From a virus, in IMG/VR virus record IMGVR_UViG_3300028025_002046, positions 1 to 64,000 of that record: a stretch of 64,000 nt of DNA, one strand, 5' to 3'. This document shows, in pieces, positions 28,244 to 61,989 of the stretch. Numbering within the stretch: position 1 is the first letter of the stretch; every line of letters begins with the position of its first letter. The position numbers and the translations under genes were made by a program. The notes beneath the pieces are model-generated. The model was not told the DNA's origin and made no database searches. It was given only the letters and a program-made list of their open reading frames with translations.

Positions 28244-28795
28244 ATGAATAAAAAATTTGCTGCTGTAGGTCTAGGCTTAGTTCTAGTTCTTACAAACTGT
28301 ACTGGCGTTGGTGCCAGTGCTTCACAACTAAAGACAAATCCTGAAGTTGAAAAATATCAGGTAACACTCACATCTATCTTAATCCCAAGCATTGAAAAAA
28401 CTGTGCTAAACAACAATACCGAAAAGATGACTAGTGTTGTAAAAAAATTAAAGAAGCGTGTCAATAAAACATGGTATGCATTTGGAGGTGAGACTCCAAG
28501 AGGTTGGGACTGCTCAGGTTTAGTGATATGGGTATACAAGCATTTTGGGATTAAACTTTATCACAAAGCATCTTCACAAAAGTATGCAGCCAAGCCTCGT
28601 AAATACGTTGAGTCAAAGGTGAAGGCTGGCGACATTATTGCTTGCTATGGTCCTGTTGGAGTTCATGTTGGAATTGCTTCTGACAGAAAAGGATACATGA
28701 TTCATTCTCCTAGACGTGGAGTAACGACTAAAGAAGATAAGGTTTTAGATTTGTTTTCTAGTTGTACGTATACTAGGTTAATACAAACCGCCTAA
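28244..28795 (+). CDS. secreted NlpC/P60 (C40) peptidoglycan endopeptidase
   Basis: signal peptide; Y.FGG..PRGWDCSGLV, GDII, HVGI, MIHS catalytic Cys/His motifs. Confidence 0.9.
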   Translation: MNKKFAAVGLGLVLVLTNCTGVGASASQLKTNPEVEKYQVTLTSILIPSIEKTVLNNNTEKMTSVVKKLKKRVNKTWYAFGGETPRGWDCSGLVIWVYKHFGIKLYHKASSQKYAAKPRKYVESKVKAGDIIACYGPVGVHVGIASDRKGYMIHSPRRGVTTKEDKVLDLFSSCTYTRLIQTA

Positions 28796-45524: not shown

Positions 45525-45703
45525 TGATGACACGCAAAGACTATGTAGCAACCGCAGAAATTCTAAATTCTTATGTTCACAATTTAGACGCTCCAATTTT
45601 TGATTGCCTAGTTCAAGATTTTGTGGCTATGTTCGCAGAAGATAACGACCGCTTTCTAATTGATAAGTTTGAAGACGCTTGTTGGGGAACGGCTAGGGAG
45701 TAA
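45524..45703 (+). CDS. hypothetical protein (MTRKDY..F..DN.RF..KF..AC family)
   Basis: motif common in phage early genes; SD AGGAG. Confidence 0.75.
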   Translation: MMTRKDYVATAEILNSYVHNLDAPIFDCLVQDFVAMFAEDNDRFLIDKFEDACWGTARE

Positions 45704-47774: not shown

Positions 47775-47803
47775 TTGACAATCTCCTGCTTATGCCTTAT
47801 AAT
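47775..47803 (+). promoter_or_regulatory. consensus sigmaA promoter
   Basis: TTGACA-17-TATAAT. Confidence 0.8.
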
Positions 47804-47852
47804 AGATACATAAGCAAAAATGTTTATGTAAACCGAATAGAAAGAAGCAAAA

Positions 47853-47999
47853 ATGACCGAAGTTACTGTTGGCTCACAGTTCGCAACCCAGAAGTCTGGC
47901 GTTGTTGGTATTGTTCAGGAAGTTGTAATCAACAAGAACGGCTCTCAGCGTGTTCGCCTTGATGTAAACGGAACTGACCGCTGGACTACTGTAAAGTAA
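47853..47999 (+). CDS. 48-aa beta (SH3-like) protein
   Basis: MTEVTVGSQFATQKSGVVGIVQEV..RWTTVK. Confidence 0.75.
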   Translation: MTEVTVGSQFATQKSGVVGIVQEVVINKNGSQRVRLDVNGTDRWTTVK

Positions 48000-48005
48000 T
48001 TCACC

Positions 48006-48033
48006 AATCCTGAGTATGATTTCAAACTGCTCA
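48006..48033 (+). ncRNA. H-type pseudoknot element
   Basis: AATC-CTGAGTAT-GATT..AAAC-TGCTC; homologs at 48606, 48687, 50855. Confidence 0.6.
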
Positions 48034-48162
48034 CAACATTGTAAATAGGTTCGTTATCCATAATTGTGGCTCGTAGAGATAACCAATAAGCACCCACTCC
48101 CTATCTATAATGTCTTACCCCCACGCTATAATAGAGTTACAACCCAAACAAAGGAAGATAAA

Positions 48163-48600
48163 ATGGCAAGAGCCGTATCAGTAAAAATCCCAACTATCAA
48201 AGTCATTGAGATGATTGAGAACAAGTTGGCAGAGATGAACAAGGTAGTCAAGGAATACCCTGCCCTACTAGCAACCTACAACAAGGCTAACAAGGAATAC
48301 ACCAAAGCCCTTGCTGAGTTGGTTGGCAAGAACTCTAACAAGATTGTTGCTTATCGTGATTTCGATTGGACTAGCGACCAGATTGCTCTGTCTAGCGACT
48401 ATCGTGGCTCTGCCCAGATTTATGTTGGCAAGGGTCTAACAAGCAAGATTGGCGACAAGCCAGAAAAGCCAGAAGACCCAGACAACTACACTTTCAAGCA
48501 GAACTTAGAGCAGTTGGAAAAGACCTTGAAGTTGCTTCGTATGACCGAACAGGAAAGCGTTTCTGCCTCAACCTACAACTCTGTCTTAGACCTAATCTAA
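48163..48600 (+). CDS. coiled-coil hypothetical protein
   Basis: SD AAGGAAG; promoter 48109. Confidence 0.8.
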   Translation: MARAVSVKIPTIKVIEMIENKLAEMNKVVKEYPALLATYNKANKEYTKALAELVGKNSNKIVAYRDFDWTSDQIALSSDYRGSAQIYVGKGLTSKIGDKPEKPEDPDNYTFKQNLEQLEKTLKLLRMTEQESVSASTYNSVLDLI

Positions 48601-48605
48601 GATAA

Positions 48606-48762
48606 GCACCTAAGCAAGTGTCTAAAAGGCTTAGTAAACACCTTACTCTCTGTTGCTCGCAAGGGTATTCATAATAAGGTTTTTATACACCTAAGCAAGT
48701 GTCTAAACTGCTTACAATCCCCCTGTGAAGTATCTGGATAGATACTGGTTAGCAGGGGGATT
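48606..48762 (+). ncRNA. structured intergenic RNA: two pseudoknots plus terminal hairpin
   Basis: CACCTAAGCAAGTGTCTAAA..GCTTA twice; AATCCCCCTG/CAGGGGGATT stem. Confidence 0.5.
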
Positions 48763-48869
48763 CTTGCTACCCCAGGAGCTGGGGGTACCCCCCCTACCCA
48801 CTAAGCCCTTTACGTTATAATGTCTTACCCCCCTGTTATAATTGACCTATCACAAAGAAAAGGAAAACT

Positions 48870-49508
48870 ATGAAACACGAAACAACCCTTTACACCTACA
48901 CCAACAAAGCCTATGTTACTGAGTATGGCGATTTCGCAGCCGAAGGCTCTTGCCTTACTTTTGATTCTTCACTACTCTCTAACTCACAATGGCAGTTAGT
49001 AGATGAGTTGCCAGATTCACAAAAGTTTGAGTATGTCTTGGCTATCCTTGACGGAGAAGAAGATGTTATTCGTGAGATTGAAAGCGAGAATAAATAATGT
49101 TTGATGATGTAATCGCTATGGACATAGTGGAACAACTAACCGAAGAACAACTAGACCAACTAATCGCAATACTAGAAGGAGCAGGTTACTAATGTTTATT
49201 CCAAACTTAGCAATACTACTAGACGAAATCAAACAGGCAGAGAAATCTTCCAAACTTGAAGGTGTTGTGTCTTACGCTAGTGGCTATGAAGATGGCTTGC
49301 GTATGGCATTAGACATTTTGGAAGGAAGGGTAGAGTAATGGAAAAGATTACTGTTAGTCTTAGGTTTGAATACTACCCTGAAGAAGACCACGCAGAATTG
49401 TTTGAAGACATGACTGAAGATGAAATGATTCGCTATGCTAAAGAAATGGCTTGTGAAGATATAGTCAGTGGAGATGTTTGGGAATGGCTAGAAGTTTCGG
49501 TAGAGTAA
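48870..49508 (+). CDS. operon of four small acidic ORFs
   Basis: 48870-49097 in ORF track, then MFDDVIAM.., MFIPNLAI.., MEKITVSL.., closely coupled. Confidence 0.65.
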
Positions 49509-49558
49509 AATGTCAGACCCTACCAGTATAATTAGACTATCAACGAAAGGAAACACTA

Positions 49559-50050
49559 ATGGGAACTCGTAATCTAACTAAGGTAATTGACAAAGACGGA
49601 GTAACTAAGGTTGCTCAATACGGACAATGGGACGGCTACCCTAGCGGACAGGGTATCAACGCTCTTCTACACGCCTACAATCACAGGCAGATTGAAAGCA
49701 AGTTGCCTAGACTACACTTTCTAACCGACAGCGAGATTGAGAACATCAACTCACTACTATCGGCAAGCGGACAGCCAATTAGCGAAGTCTATCCTACCCT
49801 ATCTCGTGATACCTGTGCGGACATTCTAGGCTATGTCGCTTGGTCTAATGATGTATTCCTAGTGGATAGTAGCGACTTTGAGAATGACGAATTGTTTTGT
49901 GAAGCAGTTTACACGCTAGACTTTCAAAAGAAAAAGTTTATCTCTACTTATGGTGGACACACCTTAGAGTTTGAGTTGGACGACCTACCAGAACCGAAAG
50001 AGTTTTTGGCAGATTGGGCGTATGAACTAAATCCTGGTGTGGTGGGCTAA
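49559..50050 (+). CDS. hypothetical phage protein (MGTR..QWDGYP family)
   Basis: N-terminal MGTR and Y.QWDGYP.G.G motif. Confidence 0.8.
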   Translation: MGTRNLTKVIDKDGVTKVAQYGQWDGYPSGQGINALLHAYNHRQIESKLPRLHFLTDSEIENINSLLSASGQPISEVYPTLSRDTCADILGYVAWSNDVFLVDSSDFENDELFCEAVYTLDFQKKKFISTYGGHTLEFELDDLPEPKEFLADWAYELNPGVVG

Positions 50051-50147
50051 CGCTCACCCCTAGGGGGTACCGCCCAAGATCCAAGCTGTTTACGACTATA
50101 ATGTCAGACCCCCAATGTATAATGGAACTATCAACGAAAGGGAAACA

Positions 50148-50309
50148 ATGAGCGAGTATGTAGCAGTAGACATTTATGACCGTATGGAGGCTAACGCCAA
50201 CGACCTTGGTGGTAGCGTTGAGGAAGACCTAGCAGAGATTCTTGCGTCTGGTGACCTAAGTGCTTTTGAAGACTACTTTGGCGACACAGACCCATTTGAA
50301 TTCCTATAA
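50148..50309 (+). CDS. small acidic protein
   Basis: SD GAAAGGG; promoter 50100. Confidence 0.7.
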   Translation: MSEYVAVDIYDRMEANANDLGGSVEEDLAEILASGDLSAFEDYFGDTDPFEFL

Positions 50310-50355
50310 TGTCCTACCCCACCTGTATAATAGAAACATCAACGAAAGGTAAAGA

Positions 50356-50835
50356 ATGAACGAGAATGAAAACACAGATAACATTGGCAATTTTGGTGAG
50401 TATAATGCTGTTCCTGTTGAACCAATAGTCCACCCTTCCCTAGCAAAATTGTATGACGAGATTGCTGACCTAAAAGAAAAGTTGGTTCACTCAACTACCA
50501 TTGCGAGCGAAGCACAAACTCGTTTGCGTGAACAGCAGAGCGAGTATCGTGAGAACGAGGGCAAACTTCAAGACATTCTAATTGAAGCACTTGGAGATGA
50601 AGAAATTGACAAAGATGTAGCAGACAAGATTGCCGAACTCTATGGTCTTGACCTACGCAAGGTATTCTCTATCAACATTCAGGTTGTTGTAAATGTTGAA
50701 GTGTCTGCTCCTGTTGGAACTGACCCTAGCGACATTGTAGATAATGTTGGCTTTGGCTATGGCGGTATCACCTACTCTGGTATTGGTGATTTGGAAAGCG
50801 ACCATTGGGAAATTGACGACTGGGAAGAAGTGTAG
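50356..50835 (+). CDS. acidic coiled-coil hypothetical protein
   Basis: ORF track; promoter 50308. Confidence 0.8.
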   Translation: MNENENTDNIGNFGEYNAVPVEPIVHPSLAKLYDEIADLKEKLVHSTTIASEAQTRLREQQSEYRENEGKLQDILIEALGDEEIDKDVADKIAELYGLDLRKVFSINIQVVVNVEVSAPVGTDPSDIVDNVGFGYGGITYSGIGDLESDHWEIDDWEEV

Positions 50836-50974
50836 GGTAAACCTTTCCCCTACCAGTGCTGGGTATCACTATAAACTACCCCCACATGGGCGTACCCCTC
50901 CCTGCCCCAAGATCCATTTACGATAGCTTTAAGAAATCTCCAGAAAATTCCCCAAAACTTTTTGCTAAATAGTA

Positions 50975-51003
50975 TTGACAAACAGAGTGTTTGCCTGTAT
51001 AAT
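50975..51003 (+). promoter_or_regulatory. consensus sigmaA promoter
   Basis: TTGACA-17-TATAAT. Confidence 0.8.
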
Positions 51004-51045
51004 TAGACTATACACAAATCAACCACTAACAGAAAGAGAACCCCT

Positions 51046-52062
51046 ATGGCTCACGAACTAGAACAAGGCGAGAATGGCGAAGTTGCTTTTGCTTCGCTAC
51101 GCCAACCTGCTTGGCACAATCTAGGCACTGTCTTTGAAGAGCAGGTCAATACAGCAGAGATGCTGAAACTTGCTCACCTTGATAATTGGAATGTTCGTCT
51201 TGAAGATGTAACCATTCCAGAAAACTTTGAGAGCGACAAAAACTATTCGTTCGTTACTCGCACTAACCCTTTTGATAACACCAAGAATGATGTTCTCGGC
51301 GTTGTCGGTGAGCGTTATGTTCCCCTACAAAACGAAGACCTATTTTCGTTTGGCGACAACCTGCTAGACGGCGGTGGTCGTTGGGAAACCGCTGGCTCAA
51401 TCAAGGGTGGTCGTCAGGTGTTCGGCTCTATCGCTTTGGCTGATAGCATTACCCTAGACCCTAATGGTCGTGCTGATAAGATTGATAACTATCTTCTAAT
51501 CAACACTTCTCACGACGGAAGCATTGCTATTCAGGCAAGTATCACGCCTGTTCGTGTTGTATGTGCTAACACTCTCAACCTTGCTCTATCTTCATTCAAG
51601 GGCAAGAAAGCAGCGAAGCAGACTTTCAAAATCCGCCACACTTCAACTGCCGAAGGTAAAATCGCAGTTGCTCGTGAAGCACTAGGTCTTGCCAAGACTT
51701 ACCTAGACGAGTTTTCTCTTATGGCTAACGCTATGATTGAAAAGGAAATCACTAAGGCTGACTTTGATAAGATTGTCGCTCTTGCTTACCCTGCTCCTGA
51801 AAAAGACGCTAAGGGTTCATTCAAGAAATACGACAGCAAGATTGACCTGCTAAACGACATTTATGTTGGGCAATTCAATGACACCATTTCTGGAACTGCT
51901 TGGGGAGCATACAACGCTCTAACCGAACGCCTAGACTGGTATCGCTCTGCTCGTGGTGGAAGCAACGAGAGTATCTACGCTTCTGCTTCTGGCTTTGACC
52001 CTGTAATCAACGCAGAGAAGAACCGCTTGATGAAGATTGTTCAACAGGTTGTAATGGCGTAA
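51046..52062 (+). CDS. DUF932 / TIGR03299-family phage-plasmid protein
   Basis: PAWH.LG, Y.PLQN, ETAGS..GGR, SHDGS, TPVRVVCANTL, IRHT, GTAWGAYNA.TE. Confidence 0.9.
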   Translation: MAHELEQGENGEVAFASLRQPAWHNLGTVFEEQVNTAEMLKLAHLDNWNVRLEDVTIPENFESDKNYSFVTRTNPFDNTKNDVLGVVGERYVPLQNEDLFSFGDNLLDGGGRWETAGSIKGGRQVFGSIALADSITLDPNGRADKIDNYLLINTSHDGSIAIQASITPVRVVCANTLNLALSSFKGKKAAKQTFKIRHTSTAEGKIAVAREALGLAKTYLDEFSLMANAMIEKEITKADFDKIVALAYPAPEKDAKGSFKKYDSKIDLLNDIYVGQFNDTISGTAWGAYNALTERLDWYRSARGGSNESIYASASGFDPVINAEKNRLMKIVQQVVMA

Positions 52063-52209
52063 GCCATTCTCCCTTGCTCCTGGCAGTAAAATGTCAGGGG
52101 TATAGGGGGTACCCAGCTATCGATCTTATTTACGACACACCTTACGATATCCCTATAATGTCATACCCTACCCTTATAATAGATACATAACCCGAAGAAA
52201 GGAAAAGCA

Positions 52210-56211: not shown

Positions 56212-56502
56212 ATGAACGAAACCACTATAGATAACAAATGTAACATCCTAGCAGAACTATGGATGGACTACCGAGATGATGTAAACTTTGATGACTTCAT
56301 CAACTACGCTGACTTAGGTTTGCCATTGGCATACGCTATCAGTAATGAGATAGTCAAACTTACTCCACAGGCAGAGAAGTTTATCACGGAGGCTTTTGAT
56401 TTGCTAGTAGCAAGTATGGGTCTAGAAGATACAGGCTTTGAAACTCTGGATGACATTTTCATGGAAGGCGATTTAGAAGCTTTCGAAGATCCAGAAGAGT
56501 AA
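56212..56502 (+). CDS. acidic hypothetical protein
   Basis: leaderless after TTGACA-17-TATAAT at 56177; DLGLPLAY motif. Confidence 0.75.
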   Translation: MNETTIDNKCNILAELWMDYRDDVNFDDFINYADLGLPLAYAISNEIVKLTPQAEKFITEAFDLLVASMGLEDTGFETLDDIFMEGDLEAFEDPEE

Positions 56503-61913: not shown

Positions 61914-61989
61914 TGGTCCCCCCAGCAGGAATCGAACCTGCGACCAAGAGATTAGAAGGCTCTTGCTCTATCCACTGAGCTATGGAGGG
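61914..61989 (-). tRNA. tRNA-Arg (UCU)
   Basis: 76-nt cloverleaf, anticodon loop CTTCTAA, GGTTCGATTCC T-arm, encoded CCA. Confidence 0.95.

Follow-up and report, generated by a model that had tools for sequence, protein, structure and literature searches.

A 27-nucleotide H-type pseudoknot downstream of phage stop codons as a possible mRNA boundary or stability element

Results

Four pseudoknot copies lie among small phage genes

The DNA analyzed here (the window) corresponds to positions 1 to 64,000 of IMG/VR virus record IMGVR_UViG_3300028025_002046, which is 94.6 kb long, and carries on its plus strand four copies of a compact element that can be drawn as an H-type pseudoknot (Table 1). 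In each copy, a 4-bp stem (stem 1, S1) closes a loop, and a short A-rich linker leads to a 3' arm that pairs back with the loop (stem 2, S2). The four sites and their pairings had been described in an original prediction from the letters of the window, and they read in the sequence exactly as described there. The same prediction placed all of the sites downstream of stop codons; this holds for copies 1, 2, and 4, which start 6, 5, and 19 nt 3' of a stop codon, respectively, but not for copy 3, which lacks an open reading frame (ORF) of its own and lies 81 nt after copy 2. Copies 2 and 3 are not independent of each other because their 20-nt core is identical. Copy 2 is a register-shifted variant with AAAAG-G in place of AAAC-U, and its AAAAG-GCUC version recurs at the same gene position in loci L002, L004, L007, L015, L016, and L018. 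At the position of copy 4, relatives hold copies of differing sequence.

Table 1. Pseudoknot copies and other features of the window. Scores are those of covariance model R1 (see text) unless stated otherwise.
Feature	Coordinates	Strand	DNA sequence	Parts (RNA)	Score (bits)	Surroundings
Pseudoknot copy 1	48006..48032	+	AATC CTGAGTAT GATT TCAAAC TGCTC	S1 AATC/GATT; loop CUGAGUAU; linker UCAAAC; S2 GAGUA/UGCUC	39.5	3' of TAA 47997-47999 (+), end of 48-aa gene 47853-47999
Pseudoknot copy 2	48606..48634	+	GCAC CTAAGCAA GTGT CTAAAAG GCTTAG	S1 GCAC/GUGU; loop CUAAGCAA; linker CUAAAAG; S2 UAAGC/GCUUA	11.1 (partial match)	3' of TAA 48598-48600 (+), end of gene 48163-48600
Pseudoknot copy 3	48687..48714	+	ACAC CTAAGCAA GTGT CTAAAC TGCTT(A)	S1 ACAC/GUGU; loop CUAAGCAA; linker CUAAAC; S2 AAGCA/UGCUU (+U-A)	38.5	
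Long GC-rich hairpin	48716..48762	+	AAUCCCCCUG...CAGGGGGAUU			Directly 3' of copy 3
Small hairpin	50832..50853	+		UAGGG...CCCUA		Between stop codon and copy 4, as is typical where the gap is 19-20 nt
Pseudoknot copy 4	50855..50881	+	AGTG CTGGGTAT CACT ATAAAC TACCC	S1 AGUG/CACU; loop CUGGGUAU; linker AUAAAC; S2 GGGUA/UACCC	37.3	3' of TAG 50833-50835 (+), end of gene 50356-50835
Sigma-70-type consensus promoter	47775..47803	+	TTGACA-17-TATAAT			Drives short unit ending in copy 1
Consensus promoter	50975..51003		TTGACA-17-TATAAT			After copy 4 and C-rich sequence
tRNA gene	61917..61989	-			65 (Rfam)	Sole tRNA gene in window; no knot adjoins

Both stems of the fold covary

The family consensus spans 27 nt and consists of the 4-bp stem 1, a loop CUNNNNAW, the stem 1 partner, a linker NNAAAC, and 5 nt that pair with loop positions 3 to 7. 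The loop begins with C-U and ends with A followed by A or U, and A-A-C precedes the 3' arm, all of these positions being invariant or nearly so; seven invariant nucleotides, unpaired or at a junction, fall within the 27-nt fold.

A strict pattern (4-bp stem, 8-nt loop starting with CT, 5-7-nt linker with AAA, and 5 nt pairing to the loop) matched four times on the plus strand of the window, at the four sites of Table 1, and once on the minus strand. The entire 94.6-kb genome gave five plus-strand and two minus-strand matches, compared with 0.27 +/- 0.48 per strand in 60 dinucleotide shuffles. Beyond the window, the minus strand has two more good copies, at genome positions 67190 and 86933, and the genes there are on the minus strand as well. 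Twenty-five related phage loci (76-95% identity), retrieved with the 338-amino acid protein encoded at 51046-52062, contained 39 matches on the gene strand and 0 on the opposite strand, with 13 distinct versions of stem 1 and 7 of stem 2. A covariance model restricted to stem 1 (R1) identified ~73 copies in these loci, all on the sense strand, including copies with linkers of 6-13 nt and the recurrent register-shifted variant exemplified by copy 2.

A non-circular selection employed the unpaired invariant letters alone (CT....A........AACT) on the gene strand of the 25 related loci. Among the 92 sequences so selected, all 8 remaining pairs were formed in 40 and 7 of 8 in 6, and the others scattered like random sequence, resulting in a bimodal distribution. 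Stem 1 was evaluated further in 76 distinct sequences from other phages, chosen without a stem 1 constraint. Here 93% of the stem 1 cells were paired, compared with 26-36% in slid controls, and all four pairs exhibited double-sided changes, the outermost pair being the weakest. In stem 2, four of the five pairs change on both sides, and three copies with one loop base more also have a 3' arm that is one base longer to match (GAGCCA/UGGCUC). Both stems frequently contain G-U pairs. Overall, at least 29 stem 1 pairs and at least 8 stem 2 pairs occur with pairing retained. The earlier observation that the stems vary yet keep pairing is thus borne out in much larger alignments (hundreds of copies), in which both stems covary. 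On these comparative grounds, the predicted element is assigned to the H-type pseudoknots, both of its crossing helices being backed by compensatory change.

The loop lengths conform to this architecture when judged against the established rules for classical pseudoknots: loop 1 has 1-2 nt over a 5-6-bp stem 2, and loop 3 has 6-13 nt over the 4-bp stem 1, so that both are sterically able to cross the grooves. Nested minimum free energy folding cannot represent a pseudoknot, and its z-scores were ~0 for copies 1, 2, and 4. One unpaired nucleotide would remain at the helix junction, and the A-rich loop 3 (NNAAAC) would be accommodated in the minor groove of stem 1. The sequence C-U-R-R fits the YUNR U-turn motif known from RNA structures in general, and by analogy the CU of loop 1 probably adopts such a turn.

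The element is widespread in phages and absent from Rfam

Wider searches used a pattern free of stem 1 constraints, CTGAGCAANNNNNNAAACTGCTC, which in IMG/VR recovered at least 119 further stretches; among the matches listed, stem 1 was fully paired in 111 of 135, and 3 of 4 pairs were present in 23. One-per-species prokaryote assemblies (GTDB) contributed 120 stretches, of which 44 had a full stem 1 and 24 had 3 of 4 pairs, and ~50 looked random. The GTDB labels include Saccharibacteria, Aminicenantes, Lactobacillaceae, Lachnospiraceae, Calothrix, Polynucleobacter, Omnitrophota, and Bacteroidota, among others, and the copies in these assemblies presumably represent prophages or binned phage contigs. 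Three phages in culture each possess a single copy: Mycobacterium phage Labelle at 56443-56469 of ON108649.1, Paracoccus phage ParKuw1 at about 28611-28638 of OQ376857.1, and cyanophage S-RIM4 at about 45615-45641 of MK493321.1. A 159-amino acid neighbor protein had no relatives in IMG/VR, and blastn of 47800-51100 against cultured phages gave no match.

None of the copies is covered by an Rfam 15 family, whether in 39 other loci or in the window, where both the gathering score and E values of up to 10 were applied. A description of the motif was not found in the literature, where the thousands of unnamed IMG/VR candidates listed by Fremin et al. 2023 (PMC10690425) were not compared singly. 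The pseudoknot is an RNA family absent from Rfam and a new companion to the ribozyme and tRNA punctuation of phage operons.

A minimum distance separates the pseudoknot from the stop codon

The genomic context was counted for 366 motif-like matches from the phage family of the window (own family), other IMG/VR phages, and GTDB. An ORF on the same strand ends within 60 nt upstream in 306 of the 366, and only 3 lie inside an open frame. Relative to local coding, 300 are sense, 13 antisense, and 53 unclear. Based on this strand preference, we take the element to be a transcribed, sense-strand RNA. The gap between the stop codon and stem 1 has a sharp lower limit: 0-3 nt did not occur, 4 nt occurred once, 5 nt 60 times, 6 nt 54 times, 7 nt 17 times, 8 nt 19 times, and 9 nt 21 times, with a tail beyond, and the floor was identical in all three sets. 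Where the gap is 19-20 nt, a small hairpin intervenes, as at copy 4. TAA accounts for 66% of the stop codons that precede the pseudoknots. When the stop codon occupies the A site, a spacer of 5 nt brings the start of stem 1 to about +12 relative to the P site, which is the entrance of the mRNA channel, and frameshift stimulators use the same 5-6-nt spacing. The pseudoknot would therefore be as near to the stop codon as possible while folded during termination. Taken together, covariation, sense-strand location, and a ribosome-sized minimum gap strongly support the initial suggestion of a repeated functional RNA element.

The spacing invites comparison with the frameshift-stimulating pseudoknots of luteoviruses (beet western yellows virus, BWYV, and sugarcane yellow leaf virus, ScYLV). 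Both are H-type pseudoknots of less than 30 nt with a two-base loop 1 starting with C, a single junction base, and an A-rich loop 3 ending in AAA(C), and both lie 5-6 nt past the codon that occupies the A site. Unlike the luteovirus elements, those described here follow stop codons, have stems of 4 + 5 bp rather than 5 + 3 bp, and occur in DNA phages, repeated after many genes. Such spacing and architecture could indicate a recoding signal that stimulates read-through or frameshifting at the stop codon. An in-frame slippery heptamer (X XXY YYZ), however, was present in 0 of 306 cases, the frames past the stop codon remain open for at least 40 codons in only 5-10%, and what follows downstream are tRNAs, promoters, and ribozymes. 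We consider recoding extremely improbable and reject it for want of slippery heptamers and continuing frames.

Alternatively, the pseudoknot could act as a translation insulator that blocks read-through or sliding ribosomes, uncouples cistrons, and shields a downstream structured RNA or start site. The sharp 5-6-nt spacing is where frameshift-stimulating pseudoknots touch the ribosome, the C of loop 1, the one-base junction, and the AAAC of loop 3 resemble luteovirus knots that resist unwinding, and the downstream partners often must fold (tRNA, hammerhead, and DUF2800 RNA; see below). A plain spacer, however, would suffice to keep terminating ribosomes off a downstream fold, the predominant TAA is the least leaky stop codon, gaps of up to 60 nt are tolerated, and a benefit of uncoupling is not evident. 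On balance, an insulating function appears unlikely.

Related to this is the idea that the pseudoknot mimics an anticodon loop on a codon, placed exactly at the mRNA entrance while the A site contains the stop codon, and thereby controls release, recycling, or sliding of the terminating or posttermination ribosome. Pseudoknot I of the dicistrovirus intergenic-region internal ribosome entry site likewise combines a short stem with a C-U...A-A/U loop, the middle bases of which pair with a few bases downstream in an anticodon-codon-like manner. The phage element differs in its 8-nt loop, 5-bp pairing, and 4-bp stem and in that no open frame follows, and the similarity is one of resemblance only. 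Such mimicry seems quite unlikely to us; if true, the element would be a universal, host-independent phage translation-termination element rather than a passive RNA cap.

tRNAs, ribozymes, and other structured RNAs follow the pseudoknot

In 46 of the 366 cases, a tRNA gene on the same strand begins 3-12 nt after the pseudoknot (for example, L033:794-898 and L088:327-431), whereas no tRNA was found within 50 nt upstream of any of the 366 copies. tRNA-Asp makes up 36 of these 46 tRNAs, an excess that may carry meaning or may go back to a single phage lineage. Eight copies lead straight into a hammerhead core, the cut of which is positioned 6-13 nt past the pseudoknot. Fusions with a type III hammerhead are present in L169, L027, L105, L166, L237, and L263, and the Rfam hammerhead matches begin at the last 1-2 nt of the 3' arm of the pseudoknot and extend downstream. 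On the minus strand of a contig from a Polynucleobacter metagenome-assembled genome (L169:7270-7650), two units composed of gene, stop codon, pseudoknot, and type III hammerhead follow each other (Rfam scores of 50.5 and 41.2 bits), and stem III of the hammerhead begins immediately at the pseudoknot's 3' end. In four unrelated assemblies (L031:257-445, L184, L205, and L249), DUF2800 RNA (RF02960, function unknown) begins 2 nt past the pseudoknot, and the two may form one unit.

A T-run directly 3' was observed in 60 of 345 cases, and 15-45 nt separate the pseudoknot from the ribosome site and start codon that come next downstream in ~100 of 335. The element is not a general intrinsic terminator, and we rejected this function, because tRNAs (3-12 nt later) and ribosome sites are too near downstream and need read-through, in addition to the scarcity of T-runs. 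Across data sets, the 3' flank has A at +1 in 54-63%, C at +2 in 43-80%, and C at +3 in 43-66%, with very few G residues. For the own phage family, the flank reads mostly A/C-C-C from +1 to +3, with C at +2 in 45 of 56 and at +3 in 37 of 56 and G in 0 at both positions. ACCA is the commonest tetramer after the pseudoknot in IMG/VR, yet it follows only ~10% of copies, and a strict tRNA-like CCA end is not supported.

These flanks bear on the possibility of a nuclease recognition or cleavage element, either an acceptor-like minihelix for RNase P, a target of another endonuclease, or a tiny self-cleaver. There is a U before and a G after the would-be RNase P site, followed by A-C-C, which is enriched in the 3' flank; an invariant C-U precedes a purine at loop position 3; and the element occupies the same kind of gap as ribozymes and tRNAs. 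On the other hand, hammerheads and tRNAs share the gap with the pseudoknot rather than being replaced by it, ACCA is infrequent, and coaxial stacking of stems 1 and 2 yields 9-10 bp, not ~12. No known ribozyme core is apparent, and no Rfam ribozyme family overlaps any copy. We thus assign a low probability to a nuclease element.

The composition of the fold and its tRNA neighbors could also suggest a small-ligand or protein site, that is, a mini-aptamer or operator regulating neighboring genes. Seven invariant unpaired or junction nucleotides in 27 nt are compatible with such a site, size and A-rich loop 3 recall the preQ1-I aptamer, and tRNA-Asp, which predominates among the adjacent tRNAs, carries queuosine. 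The preQ1-I aptamer (RF00522) is likewise a very small H-type pseudoknot in which a 3' tail pairs with a hairpin loop. However, the phage element has one nucleotide between stems 2 and 1 instead of the ligand-binding loop 2, leaving no preQ1-type pocket, and it is located 3' of unrelated genes, not in the 5' leaders of one pathway or of queuosine genes. The RF00522 model gave no match in the window at the gathering score or at E up to 10 and none in 39 further loci, nor did any other riboswitch model match even at E up to 10. In addition, the phages concerned infect many phyla and have no common neighbor gene, and the tRNA-Asp excess may stem from one lineage. A ligand or protein site is thus very unlikely. 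We rejected a preQ1 riboswitch based on the lack of an RF00522 match, the one-base junction, and the location; a link to preQ1 via tRNA-Asp was considered and had no support beyond the identity of the tRNA. Overall, luteovirus frameshift knots are closest in architecture and the preQ1-I aptamer is closest in size, and the element lacks the defining features of both.

Strain variants have their joints at pseudoknots

A metatranscriptomic RNA contig spans 47887-48034 at 100% identity and ends 2 nt past copy 1. A contig of the same run joins 48034 to 48816, so that the stop at 48034 reflects a strain branch point and should not be read as a sign of an RNA end. A related strain thus lacks the 781-nt cassette 48035-48815, with the joint 2 nt past copy 1, and in other contigs from public runs 48627-48715, between copies 2 and 3, is replaced. 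Because the joins fall at 48034/48816 and 48626/48716, strain-level cassette changes have their joints at pseudoknots.

An attC-like element in single-stranded DNA (ssDNA), located at cassette ends and used in recombination or replication, would agree with the position of the pseudoknots at the ends of gene cassettes and with the strain joints at their edges. Moreover, covariation cannot separate ssDNA from RNA (Weinberg et al. 2017, PMC5737381), which counts in favor of this alternative. Arguing against it, the hard 5-nt floor behind stop codons is a translation-level constraint, G-T (G-U) pairs are common in both stems, and the pseudoknot is fused directly with tRNA leaders and with hammerhead stem III, which puts it in transcripts. 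An association with integrases did not turn up, although integrase linkage was not specifically examined. An ssDNA function is decidedly improbable.

Discussion

The compact H-type pseudoknot described here quite possibly serves as an mRNA boundary or stability element. Our preferred reading, held tentatively and at just short of an even chance, is that it constitutes a 3'-end protecting, boundary-defining module for the upstream cistron, a role that we infer from its context. A role in processing or end protection is favored because tRNA 5' ends and hammerhead cuts lie 3-13 nt downstream. Among the functions proposed originally, processing or an exonuclease block is therefore favored by context, whereas an aptamer or antitermination signal found no support here.

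According to the proposed mechanism, the pseudoknot would be placed just outside the mRNA channel of the terminating ribosome, and the message would be ended or cut shortly 3' of it, by RNase P at the tRNA or by hammerhead self-cleavage, or else by termination at a U-run or a later hairpin. The newly formed 3' end would then lie 0-13 nt past the pseudoknot. The fold of the hammerhead or tRNA would go with the downstream product, and the pseudoknot would stay on the 3' end of the upstream product, where it could hinder 3'-to-5' exonucleases as well as cuts between the stop codon and the end. A 3' overhang as short as this would be insufficient for the grip of exonucleases such as PNPase, RNase II, and RNase R. 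As an outcome, the upstream cistron would remain intact and translatable. In the own phage family, a host endonuclease might alternatively cut the C-rich single strand after the pseudoknot. Mycobacterial RNase E cleaves single strands 5' of C (PMC10641625), and proteins of the window are nearest to actinophage proteins.

Clustered phage hammerheads cut polycistronic RNA to gene-length pieces (Perreault et al. 2011, PMC3088659). Under the reading that we favor, the pseudoknot complements this hammerhead "punctuation" of phage operons. Both occupy gaps between small phage genes; by comparison with hammerheads (RF00008), the pseudoknot has no catalytic core, is located 5' of the cut, and is kept by the upstream product. 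By analogy to terminator hairpins, repetitive extragenic palindromic (REP) hairpins, and viral exonuclease-resistant RNAs, it may provide a folded block near the mRNA end that slows exonucleases. It differs from the first two in being a pseudoknot rather than a long hairpin; flavivirus exonuclease-resistant RNAs are far larger, possess a ring fold, and block 5'-to-3' decay.

Several observations weigh against 3'-end protection. A pseudoknot of 4 + 5 bp is weak compared with the hairpins known to stop PNPase, so that any barrier would depend on tertiary contacts. No recognizable cutter or U-run is present beside about two thirds of the copies, and the ~100 copies of 335 with a nearby ribosome site are merely intercistronic. 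Simple compaction of the genome could account for the short distance to the stop codon, and the RNA contigs over the window cannot show transcript ends. Finally, single copies are dispensable because the copy after the gene for the 338-amino acid protein has been lost in the window. Relatives (for example, L009 and L012) have a pseudoknot right after this gene, often with a tRNA directly 3' of it; at 52063-52100 of the window it is absent, and ...TAAGCCAT-TCTCCCTTGCTCC is left.

If the proposal is confirmed, few structured RNA families of phages will be smaller or more widely distributed than the pseudoknot, which is common to viruses of Actinobacteria, Firmicutes, Proteobacteria, Cyanobacteria, Bacteroidota, and candidate phyla, obeys a positional rule linked to the ribosome, and partners with tRNAs and ribozymes. 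It would also explain what becomes of the upstream product once phage operons have been processed into gene-length messages, a question open since clustered hammerheads were described. A 27-nt host-independent stabilizing or insulating module could, if confirmed, be useful in synthetic operons. The existence of cultured carriers (Labelle, S-RIM4, and ParKuw1) makes these proposals directly testable.

Other features of the window and of related loci

Copy 1 is followed by the next promoter, and copy 4 by C-rich sequence and then the second consensus promoter of Table 1. These two perfect TTGACA-17-TATAAT promoters occur amid many phage-specific-looking promoters of the form ATGTCnnACCCC...TATAAT in the block of small genes. 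The hairpin directly 3' of copy 3 is likely a terminator-type structure, albeit with a poor U tail; the fold of 48676-48765, which includes copy 3 and the hairpin, has -35.1 kcal/mol and z = -4.5.

The arrangement of many oriented copies near stop codons in short gaps is reminiscent of the stoperators found in cluster A mycobacteriophages. The latter are DNA sites of 13-14 bp that bind a protein and have a fixed sequence, whereas the sequence of the pseudoknot varies freely while pairing persists, and a fixed DNA site of the stoperator type was rejected for this reason. In L074, L087, and L093, which are other IMG/VR phages with the pseudoknot, the DnaA-box-like TTATCCACA and GGCGTGTCG motifs are present in the same gaps, downstream of the pseudoknots.

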